From the NCBI GenBank assembly GCA_045545295.1, contig JAZQAO010000036.1, positions 139,029 through 203,028 of the forward strand: a DNA stretch of 64,000 bases, read 5' to 3'. Source of the DNA: Clostridia bacterium (GTDB lineage Bacteria; Bacillota; Clostridia; UMGS1883). Numbering within the stretch: the first letter of the stretch is position 1; the number at the start of each line of letters is the position of its first letter. The notes under the pieces were generated by a model. It was not told where the DNA came from and did not search any database. It saw only the letters and a list, made by a program, of their open reading frames with translations. A program made the translations under genes and the position numbers. Below, piece by piece: positions 4,141-64,000 of this stretch.

Positions 4141-5997
4141 ATGAAAAAGATAATTACATATTTACTGGTGCTTGTAATGTTGCTGGCATCATCCGCCTCT
4201 GTTTTGGCACAAACAACAATTTCAATTGTTAATCCTACAGGAGCAAGTGAAATATACGAGGGTGAAAGCCTGAATATCAAGGCAACTCTTTCGGAGAATT
4301 CTGCATACAAGGTTGCGTTTTACCTTAACGGAGATTGGGTAAGCACAGTTTATGCATCAGATACTCCTGAATGCGAAATTACAAACATTTGTGCAGGAAG
4401 TAACACAGTACGTGCCGATGCGCTCAGCGCATCGGGCACGGTGCTTGCAACAGATACCGTTACATTCAGCGTAAACGCAAATGAAGCACCTGTTGTCTCG
4501 GTAGCGGGACTTGACAGCGAAATTGATTTGTCTTTATCGGATACTGTATCTGCTTCTGTTACTGACAGTGAAGATAACTTCACCGAAGCGAAGGTTTTTC
4601 TTAACGGAATCGAGCTTGGAACTTATACGGAAACCAGCTTTGATATCGACATTTCGTCGGCAGCATCGGGAGAAAACGCTCTCGTAATAGAGGCGGTAGA
4701 TGCTTACGGCAAAAAAGGAATTTTTGAAAAGATTTTCACTGCTAATCAAGAGATTGCACAGACTCTTGTGGAGAATAATTTTGATGACTACACAAGCGGA
4801 ACCCCTGCGAAATTTACAAATTTTGTAACAAACAAGGGTGCAAGCTACAGTGCCGTAACCACAGAGGATGAAAGCTACGGAACAAGCCTTTGTCTTACAG
4901 CAAATACGATTGAGAATTCTCCTGACGTAGATGCTCATATCTATCTTGGTACAGATTCAGGCAAGCAGAAGTTTGTTGTAAAAACATCATATTATTTCCC
5001 CGGAAATGCCGACGGAAATTATGATGCAACTGCAACACTTTACTTCCGTGCGGGAAACGGCTCGTCAAGAGAACTTGTGGATTTTGACAAGAACGGAAAG
5101 CTTAAATGCTACGGTGAAGCAGGTATAAAGTCAACAACATACGACCTTAATACATGGTACGATATGGAGCTTTATATCGACACCCGAACAGGTATGTACG
5201 ATGTAATTCTCAACGGTACACCGGTTATTGAAGGATATACCAACGTACATATAAGAGACCTTGGAATTTCGGCATTCCGTTTCGGTATTTGTACAAGAAC
5301 AGGGCATAGCGGTGCACATCCGGCATCTGATGTAGGTGCAAAGGTGTATATGGATAACATATCTGTTGTTTCTATACTTGATGTGCCGAAAATTGAGAAA
5401 GTATATTCCGAAGGAAATACCGATACTGTTTCCGGTGGAGTGGGTGAAATTAAGGCAAAGCTTTCTGCGGTAATTGACGGAAGTGATATTTTGGAAAATG
5501 TTACTCTTATGAGTGAGTTTGGTGAAGTTAATATCACTGATGCAGTTTACGATTCTCAGAATTTAACCGTTAATTTTACAACAAATGCCGAAATTCAGCC
5601 CGGTGCAGATTACACACTTATTATTAAGGAAGGAACTAAAATGACAAGCACCCTTAAAACAGTGTGTGATATCCGCTGCGGATTTACTGCTGAAAATGGC
5701 GATTACAGCGTACCCGACGGAAAATTTGAATTTTCAGACGGGGAGATTACATTTAAAGGCTCGGTTGATAATAAGACATCACTGCCCCTTGAGGCAATTG
5801 CAGTTATGTATGTATGGCAGGAAAACAAGATTGTTTCGGCTTATACTACAGCAATAGTTGCGACAGAAGACAGAGCTACAGAATTTACTGTTACAGGAAA
5901 GCCCCTTGTAAAAGGCGAGAGAGCGAGCGTATATGTTTTTGATGCAGATACCCTTGAAATACCTGTAACAGTAAAAAACTATTCCTACAGTAATTAA
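4141..5997 (+). CDS. Secreted non-catalytic protein: signal peptide, Ig-like repeats and one LamG-like module
   Basis: RBS GGAGG precedes the ATG. N-terminus MKKIITYLLVLVMLLASSASVLAQ is a signal peptide. A beta-sandwich module ends in KVYMDNISVV. No catalytic motif was recognised. Confidence 0.6.
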   Translation: MKKIITYLLVLVMLLASSASVLAQTTISIVNPTGASEIYEGESLNIKATLSENSAYKVAFYLNGDWVSTVYASDTPECEITNICAGSNTVRADALSASGTVLATDTVTFSVNANEAPVVSVAGLDSEIDLSLSDTVSASVTDSEDNFTEAKVFLNGIELGTYTETSFDIDISSAASGENALVIEAVDAYGKKGIFEKIFTANQEIAQTLVENNFDDYTSGTPAKFTNFVTNKGASYSAVTTEDESYGTSLCLTANTIENSPDVDAHIYLGTDSGKQKFVVKTSYYFPGNADGNYDATATLYFRAGNGSSRELVDFDKNGKLKCYGEAGIKSTTYDLNTWYDMELYIDTRTGMYDVILNGTPVIEGYTNVHIRDLGISAFRFGICTRTGHSGAHPASDVGAKVYMDNISVVSILDVPKIEKVYSEGNTDTVSGGVGEIKAKLSAVIDGSDILENVTLMSEFGEVNITDAVYDSQNLTVNFTTNAEIQPGADYTLIIKEGTKMTSTLKTVCDIRCGFTAENGDYSVPDGKFEFSDGEITFKGSVDNKTSLPLEAIAVMYVWQENKIVSAYTTAIVATEDRATEFTVTGKPLVKGERASVYVFDADTLEIPVTVKNYSYSN

Positions 5998-6040
5998 ATT
6001 AATTTAATAAATAATTTTTAATTAAGAAAGGATGAAAAAA

Positions 6041-8119
6041 ATGGCAAAGACTAAAAAACTTTTATGTCTGGCAGTGGCAGTAGCGCTTGTTTCTTCGCTC
6101 TTCTGCTTGCCGGCAAGTGCTACCGCTAACTGGTCACATATCTTTGATATGTCAGCAATGATGGGTGCAGGTAGTTACGGCAGACACGGTTCAACAACTA
6201 CTACAGATTATAATGTAGCAGGAGTATATGGAAAGAGTACTGATGGTGTGTTGAAGCTCAACGCAACTGCAGAAACTGCGGACTACTATCTTGGATTGTC
6301 AGGAAGTAAAACGCTATATGCTTTTACTGCAAACTCCAAGACAGTAATTTCGTATGATGTAGCATTCGATTCATTGGATGCTACCGGAAACAATCACGTT
6401 TCCCTTATGCAGTTTGCCAATGCAACCGGTGGACAGATTGCTCAACTTAATTTAGTACAGATTACAAAGGGCGGTCAGGTAAATCCTTTGGACAAAGGTT
6501 ACATAGCGACTTCTGTAAAACCGGGTTGCTGGAATAACATTACTGCAGTTATTGACCTTGGCTCTGATTCAAAAACATATACTTGTACTATTTATCTCAA
6601 CGGGGTATCCGTACAAAGCACTACAGGAACACTTTCAACTGAAACTGCTTATGTAAGAGCATTGAGAATTTGTGACCGTACAGTTGGAGGCACAGTATAT
6701 ATCGACAATCTGAAGTTTGCTTCATATCCCGCTGCAGATACAGTTAACCTTAATTTCGTATCTCAAGCAGCAACTACTGATGCAGCTAAAGTCGCTGTGA
6801 ATACTGCAAACAATACTGTTGCTATTACCGATGCAGATTTGAAAGTTGCAGAATTTAAGAATATTACAACAGGCTTTGTTGTTCTTGGTGAAGATGGTGC
6901 GGTAGCAGCAGATGATGCTTCTATTTTAGATTCTGAAATTTATGCAGTATATGTAAATGATGTTAACTCATACTATGCACCCTACACAATTTCTGTAATT
7001 CCTCCTGTAATTACAGGTAGCACAACTGTATATCAGGAAATTATCAACAATGATACAAAAGAAATCAGAGTTGTTGATATGCCGAAACTTACAGTTGGCA
7101 CATTCAAGGATAATGTAACAAATACAGGTACACTGTCTATAACTAAAAACGGTGAGGCTGCTGCTGACAGTGATTTACTTAAGGATTGCACAGTTAACCT
7201 TACACTTGGCAGTTACTATGACTATACTTACACAGTTGTTACCGAGCGCAGCTATCTTCTTAAGAAAGAAACCTTTGACGGAACATTTACAACAAGAACA
7301 AGCGGTAACGGAACTGTTTATTCAGGAAATGGTTTCGTTTGGGCAGGAAATACAAACGGAATCAGCGGAGTAACATTTGGTGAACTGACAGGTCTCGGCG
7401 GCAAAGATGCAGACGATTCAAGTTTTGGCATTACTGTTAACGGAGCAAGTGCAGATCAAGAAATCTTTACTTATATTTCAAATCCGTATATAAACAGCAG
7501 CAAGGTAATCAACACCACTCATACTCTTGAAACAAAGATTTATCTGGATGATGTTGATGCGGCAGATTTCAGCGCAATTGATTTCTGTATTAACGGAAGA
7601 AACCTTCTTAAAATTTCCCCTGACGGAAGCATCAAGCACACAGACGGTACAGTTGCTACCGGTGTGAAGTGGACGGCAGGTGAATGGATTCCCGTTGCAG
7701 TAACATATCACAAGGCTACAAATATAATTGATGTTTATGTAGGCGGCAAAAAGATAGCTTGCACATGGAATCCTGCTCCTAACGGTTCAGATATTCGTTT
7801 CCGTCCGTGGGTAAAGAAGGATGCAGTTTTTACATTTGCAATGGACGATGTTAAAATCTACACAGACAGTCTTGCAAAAGTAAGATATGACGTTGACTCT
7901 GCAAACCGTACAGTTGTTGCAGATGCAACAGAAAACCTTGCAACTCTTCCCATTATTGCAGAGTATGACAGTACAGGAAAACTTCTTGGTGTAACTCTCG
8001 GAAAGAGTGAAAAAACAATTTCAAGAAATTACGCAGCAGATAGCAAGGTAAAGGTTATCCTTATTAACAGTCTTGCAGAGCTTGAAGCTATAACAGACGT
8101 ATACGAAGCAGTTAGATAA
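6041..8119 (+). CDS. Secreted LamG-repeat protein, paralog of the N-terminal two thirds of 8629..12171
   Basis: The ATG at 6041 is better spaced from RBS AGAAAGGA than the ATG at 6032. Signal peptide MAKTKKLLCLAVAVALVSSLFCLPASA. Modules end in TVYIDNLKFASY and FAMDDVKIYTD. Long colinear similarity to the next gene, e.g. ETFDGTFTTRTSGNGTVYSGN versus ETFDGTYSQRTSGNGKIYVGN. Confidence 0.65.
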   Translation: MAKTKKLLCLAVAVALVSSLFCLPASATANWSHIFDMSAMMGAGSYGRHGSTTTTDYNVAGVYGKSTDGVLKLNATAETADYYLGLSGSKTLYAFTANSKTVISYDVAFDSLDATGNNHVSLMQFANATGGQIAQLNLVQITKGGQVNPLDKGYIATSVKPGCWNNITAVIDLGSDSKTYTCTIYLNGVSVQSTTGTLSTETAYVRALRICDRTVGGTVYIDNLKFASYPAADTVNLNFVSQAATTDAAKVAVNTANNTVAITDADLKVAEFKNITTGFVVLGEDGAVAADDASILDSEIYAVYVNDVNSYYAPYTISVIPPVITGSTTVYQEIINNDTKEIRVVDMPKLTVGTFKDNVTNTGTLSITKNGEAAADSDLLKDCTVNLTLGSYYDYTYTVVTERSYLLKKETFDGTFTTRTSGNGTVYSGNGFVWAGNTNGISGVTFGELTGLGGKDADDSSFGITVNGASADQEIFTYISNPYINSSKVINTTHTLETKIYLDDVDAADFSAIDFCINGRNLLKISPDGSIKHTDGTVATGVKWTAGEWIPVAVTYHKATNIIDVYVGGKKIACTWNPAPNGSDIRFRPWVKKDAVFTFAMDDVKIYTDSLAKVRYDVDSANRTVVADATENLATLPIIAEYDSTGKLLGVTLGKSEKTISRNYAADSKVKVILINSLAELEAITDVYEAVR

Positions 8120-43021: not shown

Positions 43022-43066
43022 TTTTTTCTTCTCCTTTATTTTATAATTAATTAAATTTTTTACCAT

Positions 43067-43250
43067 ATAGAAAATTGAGTATTCTATCGCGAGGCGCTTC
43101 GTCCTTTTTTTAATTTATGGGAAATTGCGTTTTTTATCGCGAGCAATATTTGTGGGTTTTAAGTTAAGTTTGGACGCGACGTGGGTGAAGCGGCACGCTT
43201 CTTTTTTATTCAGTCGGGACGCGAAATGGGTGAAGCGGCACGCTTCTTCA
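43067..43250 (+). repeat. D-family repeat units (2-3 degenerate copies)
   Basis: GACGCGACGTGGGTGAAGCGGCACGCTTCTTTTTT (43173-43207) and GACGCGAAATGGGTGAAGCGGCACGCTTCTTC (43218-43249) match the core of the 63.6-kb tandem array. The upstream GAAAATTGAG...TATCGCGAGGCGCTTCGTCCTTTTTTT is a diverged unit. Confidence 0.65.
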
Positions 43251-55105: not shown

Positions 55106-55153
55106 AATAGACAACTCCTTATATTTTAGTTTTAAATTTAATGTGTTTGTAAA

Positions 55154-55290
55154 GTTCGAAATGTAAAATTCGAAATGATGGTCGGTTTTCCCTTGTGTGA
55201 AAACCTTTTATCCTTATAACTGGAAACAAGGATTTTTGACTTGTCAAAAATCTTCATTCACTTCGAACTTCGCATTTCGCACTTCGAACT
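55154..55290 (-). repeat. C-family intercistronic hairpin repeat (C1)
   Basis: GTTCGAAATGTAAAATTCGAAATGATGG...GGTTTTC-N8-GAAAACC...GATTTTTGAC-TT-GTCAAAAATC...CACTTCGAACTTCGCATTTCGCACTTCGAACT. The termini are imperfect inverted repeats. Confidence 0.7.
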
Positions 55291-56938: not shown

Positions 56939-57137
56939 GTTCGAAATGTAAATATATCCCTCCACCAAGCTACGCTTGGTCCCCCTCCCTTTAGGCAAGG
57001 GAGGCTGCAAAATTCGAAATGATGGTAGTTTTTCTCTCACAAGAAAAACTTTTATTTATGTGAAATTTTCAAATAAGGATTTTTGCTGAAGCAAAAATTT
57101 ACCTTCACTTCGAACTTCGCATTTCGCACTTCGAATT
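56939..57137 (-). repeat. C-family repeat (C2) carrying a 56-bp nested insertion at 56953-57008
   Basis: Same termini as C1. The segment TATATCCCTCCACCAAGCTACGCTTGGTCCCCCTCCCTTTAGGCAAGGGAGGCTGC interrupts GTAAA|AATTCGAAATG. Confidence 0.7.
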
Positions 57138-59203: not shown

Positions 59204-61154
59204 AGTTTTTAACTATCAAGTAATACATTGACCTTGACTCTGTTCCGAGAGAAATAGTAAGTTTACCATCCTCATACTTTGTGGGAACCATACCGATGTA
59301 GAAACCTTCGGGACTGATACCCCATACTTCATAAGTGGAGATGGGTGTTTCGATTTCAATTTCTGCCTTGATTGCTTCAATAAGAACGGGTGCTTTGCCG
59401 TAGTCCATCATCTGGTCGCCGACGAACTTGGCGTCAGTATTTTGTGCTCTGCCCACAGTGGTGAGAAGAATATTTGAAGATTCGGTGATTTTTTCATCTG
59501 TAAGTGAACTCATTGCAATAACTGCAAAGTCTGTTTCTGCTGTCACCTTAACGCCTGAAAGGTCAATAGTACCATTCTTCGCAAGGAAGCCGTAAGCACA
59601 TTTCGTGCCGTCTGTGTCAATGTAGCCGTAATTCTTTTCACGGCTGATGAAAAGCTCACCCGTATCGGAAAGGATATTGCCGTCAACCTGCTGAGGCTTT
59701 TCATCTGCAAACTTGTCAAAGCTGTATTCTGAATATATACCGTGCTTTTCTATTATCTCTGAAATATCGGGCTTGTTAAACACGGTTTTTGAAAGATGGC
59801 TGATAGTTTTGAATTCGTTTGCCTGCTTTACGTCGCCACGTCTTGTCATAATTGCCGCATGGTAGAAAAGACCGAACTTTGCAGGGTCGTTCCAGGTGCT
59901 GAAAATACCCTGGCGGTAAGGTGTGCCGCCGATTTTTTCGGAATATATTTCTTTACCGAGCATATCCATTCTGTCAAGACGGGCAGTGTATGAATATGTG
60001 TGGATTGCATAGCCTGACCAGCCGTGAAGAAGACCTATTGCAGCAGAGTAAAGAACACTGTCTGCACGGTATTCGTTAGGCCATGGAACATCCCACTCGG
60101 AAATATATACGGGTTTGTTTTCTACACTCATACAAGCAATCTTATCAAGGTATGATTCGTTTGACTGTGTTATGGATTTATTCATACAGCATTTGCGGTA
60201 TTCTCCCCAGCTCCAGTCATAGTAATATGTATGACCGTCAGTGTAATCTGTTCCAAGCTGTGTTTTTACGTTTGCAGGAAACATCGCCCAATTTGTTCCG
60301 GTGATAGGGATTTTTATTCCGATTTCACGCATGTAGGAAATCATATCTTTGTAATGGGTTTCGTGAAGATACATCTTGAATGCAAGAAGTGTTTCATCCT
60401 CTTTACTTGTAAGGTCAATATCGGCGGATGTTTTATCGTAACCGTTGTCTTTGAGCCACTTGTCAAAAAGATTAAGCATTCTTGTCTGATACGGCTCGGG
60501 GAAGGGCATTGCCCAGTAGTGCGAGAAGCAGTCGCTTTCATTGCAAACCTCTGCAAGCACAAAAACCGGATCATCGCAGTAACGTAGTCCCGTATAGGGG
60601 TTTTCGTGTGTCCATAAGTCCTTACAGAACTTTTTCTGAAGCTCAATAAGCTTTTCGTCAAAATAATCAAGGGGCCTTGCCGCATCAACAAGAGCTGCCG
60701 CATTTTCCACACCTTCCTCTGCACGGAATCTGCGGTATGTGAACATATCCATATAGCAGTAGATACCCTCTTTTTTAAGGCAATAAATAAGGTAATCAAG
60801 CCTGTCAATACTCTCGGGGTCAATCTGTCCGCCTGGCATTCTCTTACCTTTTGTAAAAGCAAAAATATTGGGAGTGTTCCACTCGGAATCAAGCTGATGA
60901 AATCTTACAAGGTTAAGACCGATTTTGGAAAGCCTTTTTGCAAGCTTCTCGGCATAGTCGTGCTCGGGAAAGCATCCCCAGCCGTTAAAGTTCGTTCCCC
61001 AGAATTTTACCTTTGTGCCGTCCTCAAAAACAAAATCTCTGCCGTCTGTCTTAAGAAAACCGTGCTTTCCTGCAGGTTTCTCATCCTCAAACATAAATGA
61101 AATATCAATCGGGACATCATCGTGAAAAAACGGATATGGAATAAATTCGGTCAT
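59202..61154 (-). CDS. Clan GH-A (GH5-like) glycoside hydrolase, tandem paralog B
   Basis: The ATG at 61154 follows AAAGGAG; the track start at 61199 adds 15 codons inside the promoter region. Colinear with paralog A along its whole length. Confidence 0.5.
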   Translation of the reverse strand: MTEFIPYPFFHDDVPIDISFMFEDEKPAGKHGFLKTDGRDFVFEDGTKVKFWGTNFNGWGCFPEHDYAEKLAKRLSKIGLNLVRFHQLDSEWNTPNIFAFTKGKRMPGGQIDPESIDRLDYLIYCLKKEGIYCYMDMFTYRRFRAEEGVENAAALVDAARPLDYFDEKLIELQKKFCKDLWTHENPYTGLRYCDDPVFVLAEVCNESDCFSHYWAMPFPEPYQTRMLNLFDKWLKDNGYDKTSADIDLTSKEDETLLAFKMYLHETHYKDMISYMREIGIKIPITGTNWAMFPANVKTQLGTDYTDGHTYYYDWSWGEYRKCCMNKSITQSNESYLDKIACMSVENKPVYISEWDVPWPNEYRADSVLYSAAIGLLHGWSGYAIHTYSYTARLDRMDMLGKEIYSEKIGGTPYRQGIFSTWNDPAKFGLFYHAAIMTRRGDVKQANEFKTISHLSKTVFNKPDISEIIEKHGIYSEYSFDKFADEKPQQVDGNILSDTGELFISREKNYGYIDTDGTKCAYGFLAKNGTIDLSGVKVTAETDFAVIAMSSLTDEKITESSNILLTTVGRAQNTDAKFVGDQMMDYGKAPVLIEAIKAEIEIETPISTYEVWGISPEGFYIGMVPTKYEDGKLTISLGTESRSMYYLIVKN

Positions 61155-61183
61155 TGCAAAAATCTCCTTTTTGAAATTTATAC

Positions 61184-61212
61184 TTGCATTATACCACATC
61201 TTCGTCTATAAT
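61184..61212 (+). promoter_or_regulatory. Candidate sigma-A promoter of the AraC gene 61269..62054
   Basis: TTGCAT (61184-89), 17 nt, TATAAT (61207-12). Confidence 0.6.
61188..61198 (-). promoter_or_regulatory. Candidate extended -10 promoter (TGgTATAAT) for the GH operon 61154->55318
   Basis: Minus strand TGTGGTATAAT. The TATAAT (61193-61188) overlaps the -35 of the divergent promoter. The leader to the ATG at 61154 is about 27 nt and contains an RBS. Confidence 0.5.
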
Positions 61213-61268
61213 CTAGTTAAAACAATGCAAAAAACCAATGAAAAACAGCACTTTTTTGGAGGGAAGCT

Positions 61269-62054
61269 ATGAAAGCTACGTTTGAAAACAATGATGTATT
61301 GCTTTGTGCGGAGAGTGGGAGAAGTATGCCGGGTTACCCGATGCAGTTTCATACTCACGCAGAAATTATATATATTATATCGGGAACTGTGACTATAACG
61401 GTTGACGGGATAAAACGCACGCTGAAAGCAGGACAGATGAGTATTTGCTTCCCCTATTCTATGCACGAATATGAAGAAAGTCCCGATTCAAAAATATTAC
61501 TTGTGCTTTTTTCAGCAAGTGCGACAGGTGTTTTTGAGCAGGATTTACTTACGAAAAAACCCGTTGTTCCTTATATTGAGGACGGGACGGTGCTTTACGC
61601 TACTCTTTGTAAAATTGTTGATTTTAAGAAAAAAGGCAAGGAGTACGAAAAAATTGCAATGGCATATCTTTGTGCCGCGGTGGGGGAAATACTGTCACAT
61701 CTTTCCCTTTATGATATTGAAAGCACCGACACGGGCACAATTCAGAAAATTCTGATATACTGTACCGAAAATTTCCGTGACAGCGATATGTGCCTTGACA
61801 AGGTGGCGAAAAATCTTTTTATCAGCAAAAGCTATATCTCCAAAATTTTTGCAAAAAAGCTTAAATGTAATTTCCGTGAATATATAAACTCTCTGCGTGT
61901 TAATGAAGCAAAATCACAGCTTGAGGGAACAGATTTCAAGATAATTGACATTATGGAAAACTGCGGATTTAAAAATCAGAGCAGCTTTAACCGTGTGTTT
62001 TTTGAAGAGTGCAAAGTAACGCCGCGGGAATACAGAAAAGAGAAGAAAAAGTAA
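61269..62054 (+). CDS. AraC-family transcriptional regulator (cupin-like N-terminal domain + two HTH units)
   Basis: HTHAEIIYIISGTVTITVDG is cupin-like. C-terminal VAKNLFISKSYISKIFAKKL and IMENCGFKNQSSFNRVFFEECKVTPREYR. RBS GGAGGGA. Confidence 0.75.
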   Translation: MKATFENNDVLLCAESGRSMPGYPMQFHTHAEIIYIISGTVTITVDGIKRTLKAGQMSICFPYSMHEYEESPDSKILLVLFSASATGVFEQDLLTKKPVVPYIEDGTVLYATLCKIVDFKKKGKEYEKIAMAYLCAAVGEILSHLSLYDIESTDTGTIQKILIYCTENFRDSDMCLDKVAKNLFISKSYISKIFAKKLKCNFREYINSLRVNEAKSQLEGTDFKIIDIMENCGFKNQSSFNRVFFEECKVTPREYRKEKKK

Positions 62055-62059
62055 ATAAT

Positions 62060-62092
62060 AGTACACTTTGGGGACAGTCCCCAAAGTGTACT
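62060..62092 (+). terminator. Strong hairpin after the AraC gene (possible terminator, no clear U-tract)
   Basis: GTACACTTTGGGG-ACAGT-CCCCAAAGTGTAC: a perfect 13-bp stem at 62061-62073 / 62079-62091. Confidence 0.45.
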
Positions 62093-62183
62093 AAAAACAT
62101 AAAATTATTCTGTCATTTGCGGTATGGGCGTTTTTAACATCCCATCCAGATTGGATTTTGTCCAAAAGGTTAGAATCTGTCTC

Positions 62184-62213
62184 TTGACCTTTGTTTTAAG
62201 GGGGTTGTATAAT
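62184..62213 (+). promoter_or_regulatory. Candidate sigma-A promoter of 62246..63268
   Basis: TTGACC (62184-89), 18 nt, TATAAT (62208-13). Confidence 0.6.
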
Positions 62214-62245
62214 TAAAGTAACAAAAAACAAAGGAGATGTTTGTT

Positions 62246-63268
62246 ATGGAAAAAAAGTGGGGACTTTTAGTTCATCTTGGTCGTAATATGTGGGGCGACC
62301 TTAGGGCACAGACAGAGGTTCATTTCGATATGGATGTATGGAATGACTTTGTTGACCATTGTGAGGCTAACGGACTTAATATGATTATTATGGACGTTGG
62401 TGAGGCTGTCGAGTGGGAAAGCCATCCCGAGCTTTCAATCAAGGGTGCATGGAGTAAAGAGCTTGTTAAGAGCGAGGTTTTAAGACTTCGTGAAAAGGGT
62501 ATCGAGCTTATTCCCAAGCTCAACTTCTCTAAGACACACGATGCGTGGCTTGGTGTTTATTCAAGAATGGCTTCAACACCCGAATATTACAAGGTGACAA
62601 AAGAATTAATCGAGGAAGTTTACGAAATGTTCCTTCATCCCTCAATCATACATATCGGTATGGACGAGGAAAACTGGAAGCATGCTACAGAAGGTGACAG
62701 ATCAGTTATTATGTTCCGTTCAAGTGCTCTTCAGGTTAATGATACAAACTATTTTATTGAATGTGTAGAAAACCTCGGTGCAAAATGTCATATGTGGCAT
62801 GATCCTTACTGTAACGTAAAGGAAGAAGATGCGGAAAAAATCAAAAAATCCGTTATTCCCGAGGTTTGGATGTACTATTCATACCTTAAAGAAAACTGGA
62901 CACTTATTTCCGAGCAGGACGATGAAGTAAAGGATTTCTACGCAACAGAATTTGTTCGCCGTTACGGTTACACAATCGAATATGTTGAGGAATCACCCTC
63001 TGTATTAAACGCAATCAAGCTTCTTGAAAAATTCTTCGAGGAAAAGAGACATTTCTTCCTTGCAACAAGTAACCTTTACATAAAGAACTGCGAAAAGGAT
63101 GCTATAGAATTTGTAAGAAGAAATAACCCTGACCTTTCACTTCTTGACGGTATGATTGGTGCACCCTGGGGCAGAATGTGGCCCGACAGAAAAGAGCTTT
63201 TGTGGGAAGCGGTTGAGCTTGTGGGTAAGGCAAGAAAACAAGCAGAAGAAATAATTGTGGGATGTTAA
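62246..63268 (+). CDS. Small GH20-like TIM-barrel protein (340 aa)
   Basis: The ATG at 62246 is 9 nt after AAAGGAG. WGLLVHLGRNMW, ELIPKLNFSKTHDAW and IHIGMDEENW (an H-x-G-x-D-E-like block) echo the motifs of 18417..20852. Confidence 0.4.
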   Translation: MEKKWGLLVHLGRNMWGDLRAQTEVHFDMDVWNDFVDHCEANGLNMIIMDVGEAVEWESHPELSIKGAWSKELVKSEVLRLREKGIELIPKLNFSKTHDAWLGVYSRMASTPEYYKVTKELIEEVYEMFLHPSIIHIGMDEENWKHATEGDRSVIMFRSSALQVNDTNYFIECVENLGAKCHMWHDPYCNVKEEDAEKIKKSVIPEVWMYYSYLKENWTLISEQDDEVKDFYATEFVRRYGYTIEYVEESPSVLNAIKLLEKFFEEKRHFFLATSNLYIKNCEKDAIEFVRRNNPDLSLLDGMIGAPWGRMWPDRKELLWEAVELVGKARKQAEEIIVGC

Positions 63269-63300
63269 AAAGCTCCAGAACGCAAAACGAATATCGTTTT
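63259..63300 (+). repeat. A-motif, copy 3
   Basis: GGGATGTTAAAAAGCTCCAGAACGCAAAACGAATATCGTTTT. It overlaps the last three codons and the stop of 62246..63268. Confidence 0.5.
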
Positions 63301-63388
63301 AATAAAATGCTTTTATTGAATAATAAAAACAAAGTACCGTTAAATGTTTTCGGTAGAAATTTGCGATGCAAATTTCGAAATAATTCGT

Positions 63389-63489
63389 TTTGCTACGAAC
63401 AAACTTCACCTCTCGGCGTATCCACACATACGCCTTCGGGTAACCCCTATGGGTTCAGTTTGTCCGTTCTGAAACTTTTTTCCTATCCC
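63389..63489 (+). repeat. B-family repeat, short form (B2)
   Basis: TTTGCTACGAACAAACTTCACCTCTCGGCGTATCCACACATACGCCTTCGGGTAACCCCTATGGGTTCAGTTTGTCCGTTCTGAAACTTTTTTCCTATCCC. Confidence 0.7.
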
Positions 63490-63510
63490 TTTGCGGGATA
63501 TTAAAATGCC

Positions 63511-63540
63511 CTTTGCTACGAACATTTTTTCCTATTTTCC
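63511..63540 (+). repeat. B-family repeat, collapsed copy (termini only)
   Basis: CTTTGCTACGAACA|TTTTTTCCTATTTTCC: the left and right ends of the B element are joined with no interior. Confidence 0.5.
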
Positions 63541-63576
63541 ATGCAGAATGCATAGTGCAAAATGGTTTTATAAAAA

Positions 63577-63975
63577 GCAACGTAAACTGAGGTTTTACGT
63601 TGCTTTTTTTCCTTATAGGAATTTGCGTAATTTTATTCGCGTGAAGCTATGTTCGACATTTGCAGGTGCGCGACATGGGTGAAGCGGCACGCTTCTTTTT
63701 TCTGCAAAGGAAATTGAGCAAAGTAATACGCGTGAAATTATGTTCACACTTTGCACGTGCGCGACGTGGGTGAAGCGGCACGCTTCTTTTTTTCTGTAAA
63801 GGAAATTGAGCAAAGTAATACGCGTGAAATTATGTTCACACTTTGCAGGTGCGCGACATGGGTGAAGCGGCACGCTTCTTTTTTACTGCAAAGGAAATTG
63901 AGCAAAGTAACACGCGTGAAATTATGTTCACACTTTACACGTGCGCGACGTGGGTGAAGCGGCACGCTTCTTTTT
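63577..63975 (+). repeat. Tandem array of ~4.3 units of 91-92 bp (D family), each with a GC hairpin plus T-run
   Basis: The core GCGCGAC(A/G)TGGGTGAAGCGGCACGCTTC starts at 63668, 63759, 63851 and 63943. Unit 0 (63577-63667) has a different hairpin, AAGCAACGTAAA...TTTACGTTGCTT. The array ends near 63975. Confidence 0.85.
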
Positions 63976-64000
63976 ATTTGGGGTGACAAAGATTATTGGC

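Follow-up and report, generated by a model that had tools for sequence, protein, structure and literature searches.

The window analysed here is a 64,000-nucleotide stretch (C36:139029-203028) of a Clostridia metagenome-assembled genome (MAG) of 2.02 Mb in 60 contigs, 79% complete and with 40.8% G+C. Near its end, Tandem Repeats Finder (TRF) detected the sole strong tandem array of the whole 64-kb window, at 63638-63975 (period 92, 3.7 copies, 93% matches, score 583). The array lies 3' of gene 62237-63268, and the next gene starts ~210 nt downstream of its last unit, past the window end (L098:3187). Both belong to a set of four tandem co-oriented genes of 310-343 aa (window 62237-63268 and L098:3187-4218, 4273-5280 and 5418-6350), for which Pfam gave nothing beyond a weak Glyco_hydro_20 match to the second. 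A separate intergenic repeat, which we call the 'B family' (63330-63571, C36:202358-202600), separates the array from gene 62237-63268 and recurs at ~55 other places in the genome, e.g., C20:47938-48119, C42:15987-16170 and C48:47063-47234. It starts with tttttgGTAGGAATTTGC-n-GCAAATTCC, continues as ...gttttgctacgaacaaac(t/g)tcacctctcggcgtatcc...ccttcggg...gtttgtccgttctgaa, resembles at its 5' start the 5' module of the family that makes up the array (TAGGAATTTGC), and has no Rfam match. In Logan contigs from other samples, the 'B family' is joined to the end of the second of the four tandem genes, which suggests rearrangements between strains at this place.

The 'B family' copy is closed by a terminator-like hairpin, AAAAAGCAACGTAAA-ctgaggt-TTTACGTTGCTTTTT, with a T7 tract (63572-63611, forward strand, by scan and sequence), directly behind which the first of four repeat units begins. 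Unit 0 (63612-63695, forward strand) reads CT-TATAGGAATTTGCG...GGGTGAAGCGGCACGCTTC, was assigned to the A subfamily by copy comparison, and from TATAGG (63614) to CGCTTC (63695) shows no difference from the family's most frequent sequence in this genome (17 identical copies); TTTTTTC stands on both its flanks (63605-63611 and 63696-63702). The units that follow on the same strand, assigned from their sequence and identities, are E variants: unit 1 (63703-63786) in state b (CACGTGCGCGACGTGGG), with a 5' module diverged to TG-CAAAGGAAATTGAGC, unit 2 (63795-63878) in state a (CAGGTGCGCGACATGGG), and unit 3 (63887-63970) again in state b, with T5 (63971-63975) behind it and unique sequence beyond. 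Identity is 96.7% between units 1 and 3, 95.7% between units 1 and 2, and 93.5% between units 2 and 3, and unit 0 is 78-83% identical to the other three. The preliminary description had read unit 0 as carrying the same 60-mer as the rest, and the comparison places it in another subfamily instead.

Each unit ends in the hairpin GAAGCG-GCA-CGCTTC (63681-63695, 63772-63786, 63864-63878 and 63956-63970, forward strand). A terminator scan called all four, in each case a GC-rich stem-loop with a T-run at once after it, so that the element hairpin and the T-tract behind it form an intrinsic-terminator-like site; the hairpin at 63572-63608, larger than those of the units, was a fifth call, and the region holds eight terminator-like sites against 1.1 in shuffles. 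The terminator-like hairpin with T5-7 in every unit, as first described, is thus right, as are all four starts given for the core GCGCGAC (63668, 63759, 63851 and 63943). The alternation of a and b units was also reported correctly as an order (a, b, a, b), but four units are too few to give it statistical meaning, alternation arising in two of the six possible orders and units 1 and 3 being just one base closer than units 1 and 2; TRF returned no period of 183-184, and the claimed ~183-bp higher-order structure is unsupported. Genome-wide, the two states are a pair of linked variants (G..A 40, C..G 7, mixed 6). The E-type 5' module CAAAGGAAATTGAGC of units 1-3 occurs only in this array across the genome and the fetched loci compared, and these units were therefore probably produced by local tandem duplication of one old copy. 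As the commonest A sequence with TTTTTTC on both sides, unit 0 looks like a recent arrival in the host T-tract.

A family dispersed through the genome and the genus

To follow the unit beyond the array, as the preliminary description had proposed, we searched the rest of the genome, where BLAST gave 76 places and a search of higher sensitivity 128 merged intergenic loci. Allowing up to three mismatches, the 2.0-Mb MAG contains 201 instances of the 19-nt core GGGTGAAGCGGCACGCTTC (reversed control, 1), and in 182 of the 201 cases the 5' module (T)ATAGGAAWTTGCG stands 81-86 nt upstream of it. The loci comprise 71 singles, 45 doublets, 8 triplets and 4 quadruplets; wherever a locus has more than one unit (57 loci), the units run head to tail on one strand, and about a dozen MAG contigs end in family units. 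The filled and empty orthologous sites and the flank statistics described below set the limits of the element proper, which we think likely to be NN-TATAGG...GAAGCGGCACGCTTC, i.e., NN-TATAGGAAWTTGCG to GGGTGAAGCGGCACGCTTC, a non-coding unit of ~84 nt. It has no terminal inverted repeats, since the 5' end CGTATAGGAAATTGCG and the reverse-complemented 3' end GAAGCGTGCCGCTTCA are without similarity.

Subfamilies share the two ends, which are the parts conserved family-wide, and differ inside. Type II includes the A, B and C subfamilies and the E variant of the window, and type I is subfamily D, the commonest type in related species; the interiors of the two types are wholly different. The six-pair, GC-rich hairpin at the very 3' end of the element is near-invariant, with 98% of cells paired in 33 diverse units, and the 19-nt core is likewise near-invariant across species. 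The variable interior of type I contains two co-varying direct repeats (e.g., GTCAG...GTCAG and GTAGG...GTAGG), a pattern that would suit protein binding better than RNA pairing. Several arrays mix subfamilies (D+A+C, A+D+C, D+B+B+B and D+D+B), as serial insertion predicts.

Copies in decay exist as well. A second family locus in the window (43060-43250, forward strand, from the sensitive search, C36:182203-182276) holds a D-type unit at full length beside a unit with an internal deletion and another truncated at its 5' end (ATTCAGTCGGGACGCGAAATGGGTGAAGCGGCACGCTTC). Such 5'-truncated copies are rare, the examples being window 43207-43245 (39 nt) and C4:83255. At C36:215188-215493 and at the end of contig C40, a piece of ~85 nt whose ends are inverted (AAGTCGGA...TCCGACTT) connects two truncated units that converge on each other; on one side it sits in the hairpin loop of the unit, and it may be another small mobile element aimed at family units. 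Runs of the heptamer ACTTCGA / TTCGAAAT, called by TRF at window 55148-55290 and 57107-57137 and seen in unit flanks in C42 and C51, recur in intergenic DNA near several units.

Across the genus, the core was found in 26 of 39 species with 1-188 copies each, this genome having the most, so that congeneric species range patchily from 0 to 188 copies; it was absent from all 16 genomes of other genera of the order, and a viral contig collection gave no family match. Those core-bearing records that are named are MAGs of uncultured Clostridia, Oscillospiraceae and Acutalibacteraceae recovered from the gut of goat and roe deer and from further gut or faecal material, and the window itself turned up in sequencing runs of gut, sheep, bovine-gut and faecal metagenomes. 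Identical copies at separate loci number 17 in one subfamily and 15 in another, and five units of three other species match these subfamily sequences at 100%, although the coding DNA of those species is ~80-88% identical to that of this genome. By this measure of sequence identity, the family appears to have been recently active.

Placement behind terminators and target duplication

Placement was scored on a simple longest-ORF gene map covering 91% of the genome. Convergent regions host 49 of the 113 classifiable loci (43%), compared with 166 of 1465 intergenic regions overall (11%), a roughly 4-fold enrichment, and ~30% of the convergent intergenic regions in the genome hold a copy. Units run in the direction of the upstream gene in 88 cases and against it in 32 (p = 3e-7); in co-directional regions the ratio is 36:18, i.e., a bias and not a rule, and targeting by replication strand was not separable from targeting by gene strand (14 vs 13 discordant loci). 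Among 110 arrays with a readable 5' flank, a T-run of at least 4 lies just upstream of the first unit in 102, in 70 of them exactly 5 nt before ATAGG, and 77 (70%) have an abutting hairpin (dG -7 or lower) with a T-run, a combination found at 2% of random positions. The first unit of an array thus typically lies directly 3' of a host terminator. In the window this terminator is 63572-63611, which is the landing pad of unit 0.

We fetched loci from relatives using the core as a pattern and searched simulated empty sites across the genus, which gave three clean pairs of filled and empty orthologous sites. The filled locus L039 reads hairpin, TTTTT(T)GT, unit, TTTTTGT, where the empty L052 has a single copy of the tract after the same hairpin; in the second pair, the filled C9:7565 of this genome shows TTTTT(T)AT duplicated likewise relative to the empty G052. 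The third sets L020, which carries a D unit, against the empty C13 of this genome, with flanks 99% identical and TTTTTAAT twice in the filled and once in the empty site; here a deletion between two 5' modules is an alternative reading, as the 'empty' site keeps a TATAGGAA stub. Further pairs are too diverged for a base-level reading, with presence versus absence still visible. Logan contigs, which are short and break at repeats, include a weak candidate for an empty allele of the present locus (joint 63586 to 64190 in window terms, with a side of 33 nt), and those of a second 20-kb region gave no strain-level empty site.

The duplication is also visible statistically. We compared the 8 nt outside NN-TATAGG...CGCTTC on each side, with shuffled partners as the control: in 258 units from this and other species, the flanks match at 6.19 of 8 positions versus 5.87 +/- 0.036 when shuffled. 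Moving the boundary 1 nt inward or 2 nt outward abolished the excess, and moving it 1 nt outward reduced it. Isolated single units have a perfect 8/8 repeat in 15 of 121 cases against 6.5 +/- 2.3 expected, a count reached by 1 of 500 shuffles, and none of the 121 has a repeat of at least 9 nt; most agree at 7 of 8 positions and not at 8, which leaves the length of the duplication and the 5' boundary uncertain. The duplications run 1-4 nt past the T-run, varying from site to site, and interrupted tracts are duplicated too (TTTGTTTT, TTTTTCGT, TTATTTA and TTTATTA), which marks the T-run behind the element hairpin as target and not as element cargo. Together, we regard insertion into a T-tract with a target duplication of 7-8 bp as probable.

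We propose that the array is probably a pile-up of a ~84-nt non-coding, non-autonomous mobile element without terminal inverted repeats. The element would integrate, in a single orientation, into the T-tract after the hairpin of an intrinsic terminator, and integration would duplicate 7-8 bp, comprising the T-tract and 1-3 further bases. The upstream copy of the tract would leave the host terminator intact, and the downstream copy, directly behind the GC-rich hairpin of the element, would complete a new terminator-like site, presumably able to end transcription in vivo. With two such sites in a row, the new one would serve as the next target; because the rebuilt site is itself a target, later copies would stack head to tail. 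In the window, unit 0, indistinguishable from the commonest A-subfamily sequence, would have entered the T-tract of terminator 63572-63611. Downstream of it lie units 1-3, which would be an older variant with a diverged 5' end, probably multiplied in place by tandem duplication. Of the three options offered in the preliminary description, selfish satellite DNA comes closest: selfish DNA fits, and satellite does not, as ~200 copies at 128 loci with target duplications at filled and empty sites make this a dispersed mobile family and not a local satellite.

Candidate enzymes and alternative readings

Movement of the element would presumably be enzymatic. In the 79%-complete MAG and its relatives, we found no transposase, recombinase or reverse transcriptase tied to the family; a mobilising gene could lie in the missing part of the MAG or on a collapsed repeat. 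There was likewise no ORF between unit ends in this incomplete MAG or in 84 loci from relatives, and no multi-copy ORF resembling a transposase or insertion sequence in the MAG sequence at hand. We rejected an autonomous parent element on these grounds, together with the absence of a viral-contig match, and a reverse transcriptase link because RVT_1 occurs in just 2 of the 11 repeat-bearing genomes checked and does not track the family. The rarity of 5'-truncated copies favours a mechanism needing both ends over a LINE-like one. An excised or circular element, if formed, would carry a junction of CGCTTC joined to NNTATAGG.

The MAG encodes a single Y1 transposase (C24:134539-135303, reverse strand), closest to REP-associated tyrosine transposases (RAYTs), with 68 bits against NF047646 where the curated cut-off is 80. 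The protein has a C-terminal helix-turn-helix region and homologues at L105-L116. We compared the gene's flanks in 13 copies from 11 genomes: 12 have TTTGGGGAC-type palindromes on both sides, the thirteenth is cut off at a contig end, and a family unit flanks none. At this genome's gene the palindrome takes the form ACTTTGGGGACWGTCCCCAAAGT; genome-wide there are 19 occurrences of GGGGACWGTCCCC (reversed control, 0), and this palindrome also forms the loop of several host terminators adjoining units. The gene and the TTTGGGGAC-type palindromes look like a small REP-RAYT system of their own, in which the palindrome is a likelier partner of the gene than the family unit is.

These observations bear on the possibility that the family is itself a REP/BIME-type system, its units spread through action of the single RAYT-like Y1 transposase on single-stranded hairpins. 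In favour, the copies are numerous, lie outside genes, favour gene 3' ends and form clusters; the 5' module, (T/G)ATAGG with a small hairpin after it, is reminiscent of the GTAG-plus-stem of REPs; and the one Y1 gene, with its 68 bits against NF047646, is present in 8 of 11 congeneric genomes with at least two units versus 3-4 of 14 without. However, three genomes with 18-20 units are without the gene, its NCBIfam score stays under the cut-off, and a different repeat, never the unit, brackets it. The units, moreover, are ~84 nt long, not simple palindromes, always head to tail and accompanied by target duplications of a kind that, to our knowledge, REPs and IS200/IS605-type elements do not make. 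We consider this reading unlikely, and the RAYT was provisionally rejected as the mobiliser for its weak co-occurrence and for the different family of repeats at its flanks.

A second possibility is selection at the RNA level, with copies arising by duplication and serving as sRNAs or read-through 3'-UTR modules in regulation or mRNA stabilisation. Every unit does end in a terminator-like hairpin and U-run, most are co-oriented with the upstream gene, the core is near-invariant across species, and at one long-range pair, 9 of 33 units carry a compensatory change from A-U to G-C; contigs of a run labelled 'RNA?' include units at low depth, a signal too weak to count, the kind of run being uncertain and possibly including DNA. 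Against this, the weak promoter hexamers noted earlier did not hold up (0 sigma-70-like promoters in 63200-64000, 1.4 expected), and single units lie directly behind another terminator. A four-helix model for type II units left 84% of cells paired, but neither pairing (45 of 500 shuffles) nor covariation (143 of 500) rose above the control, and we rejected that structure for want of a covariation excess; all that RNAalifold retained was the terminator hairpin plus a long-range helix of three pairs, one of them compensatory. No Rfam family came near its gathering score in 60000-64000 or 63270-64000. The iterated transcription units or sRNA cassettes first suggested are thus left without support, with no promoter detected, singles directly behind host terminators and no covariation above shuffles. 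The wholly different interiors of types I and II and the patchy 0 to 188 copies among congeneric species also speak against a selected RNA, and the target duplications and filled/empty pairs show that units were inserted and did not diverge in place. We judge an RNA-level element very unlikely.

A local satellite or protein-binding array, formed by tandem duplication here and offering ACGCGT/CACGTG sites to the nearby AraC-family regulator (61269-62054, ~1.5 kb upstream), is extremely improbable and as an explanation of the whole family already largely refuted: local duplication did happen, units 1-3 being 93.5-96.7% identical with a 5' half found only here, but 127 further loci, amid unrelated neighbours, share the architecture and 3' core, unit 0 exactly matches a sequence occurring 17 times, and the palindromes, present in some subfamilies, are absent from type I (D) and B, which weakens the protein-binding option raised at the outset.

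Relation to known elements and consequences for the host

Elements that make target duplications normally have inverted ends, and the family has none. It otherwise resembles bacterial MITEs such as Correia/NEMIS, RUP, ERIC and MITEAba12 (review PMC10969869) in being small, non-coding, non-autonomous, multi-copy, intergenic and patchy among relatives, with target-site duplications, and some MITEs carry terminators or affect neighbouring transcripts. The family differs from them in its lack of terminal inverted repeats, in that no related insertion sequence was found in the incomplete MAG, and in orientation-specific insertion aimed at terminator T-tracts. IS200/IS605-derived elements (PATE) insert 3' of a fixed 4-5-nt target without duplication, whereas the duplications of the family vary by site.

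Two further systems match in behaviour or outcome only. Class C group II introns are said to insert just after intrinsic terminators, a finding attributed to Robart et al. 2007. They share with the family a target made of a terminator stem-loop and T-run, the direction of transcription and a landing place where the element does little harm (on intrinsic-terminator insertion, see PMC12584367). The ~84-nt family, by contrast, has no ribozyme (no Rfam match) and no intron-encoded reverse transcriptase, and it duplicates its target, which reverse splicing does not. Eukaryotic SINEs are mobilised by LINE machinery through target-primed reverse transcription at TTTT/A sites. The family resembles them as a short, non-autonomous element without inverted repeats, with homopolymer-tract duplications at the 3' end and an orientation fixed relative to the tract, but it has no linked reverse transcriptase and no internal promoter, 182 of 201 copies are full length, and its duplication length looks fixed near 8 nt, not variable.

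Among bacterial repeats, the REP/BIME (REPIN) sequences of Enterobacteria and Pseudomonas with their RAYT (TnpA-REP) transposases (Nunvar et al. 2010, PMC2817692) are similar in that short repeats outside genes number in the hundreds and are enriched at gene 3' ends and in convergent regions, clusters are composite, a conserved short 5' motif adjoins a hairpin, and the genome has a RAYT-like gene. REPs, however, are 20-40-nt palindromes in clusters of alternating orientation, whereas the family unit is ~84 nt with two unlike conserved ends, clusters strictly head to tail, has 7-8 bp target duplications and coexists with a RAYT-like gene flanked by GGGGACWGTCCCC; to the GTAG-like 5' tetranucleotide of REPs it has just a TATAGG/GTAGG-like 5' motif as resemblance. 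Pneumococcal BOX/SPRITE repeats (Croucher et al. 2011, PMC3049150) are likewise modular intergenic Firmicutes repeats with conserved end modules and variable or repeated inner modules. We found no sequence relationship to them, BOX repeats an inner module within one element where the family stacks whole elements, and terminator T-tract targeting is not described for BOX.

On balance, we file the family among the known small non-autonomous intergenic repeats, as a variant of them. That it represents an undescribed kind of bacterial mobile element appears doubtful to us. Such an element would lack inverted repeats and coding, target terminator T-tracts in a fixed orientation with a ~8-bp duplication, and carry just a hairpin, by which it would make the duplicated tract both a new terminator and its own next target. 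The literature we searched contained no description of oriented T-tract insertion with a duplication that completes the element's own terminator. Were such an element at work, one possibility is an RNA route, in which a read-through transcript would end at its own terminator and its U-tail would pair with the A-run of a nicked terminator and prime copying, as in SINEs; another possibility is a DNA route through a strand-specific enzyme so far unrecognised as a transposase.

The repeats have practical consequences, as they break short-read assemblies of abundant uncultured ruminant-gut Clostridia and add many terminator-like signals to annotations. If serial insertion into terminator T-tracts holds, the family would be near-harmless selfish DNA that lands where transcription already ends and leaves the host terminator intact, with a second terminator built from the element hairpin and the duplicated T-tract. 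This would explain the head-to-tail arrays, the enrichment between convergent genes and the occupation of ~30% of convergent regions. Identification of an enzyme able to place such a repeat, whose two ends differ, into terminators in a single orientation would bring a new targeting mode to bacterial transposition.
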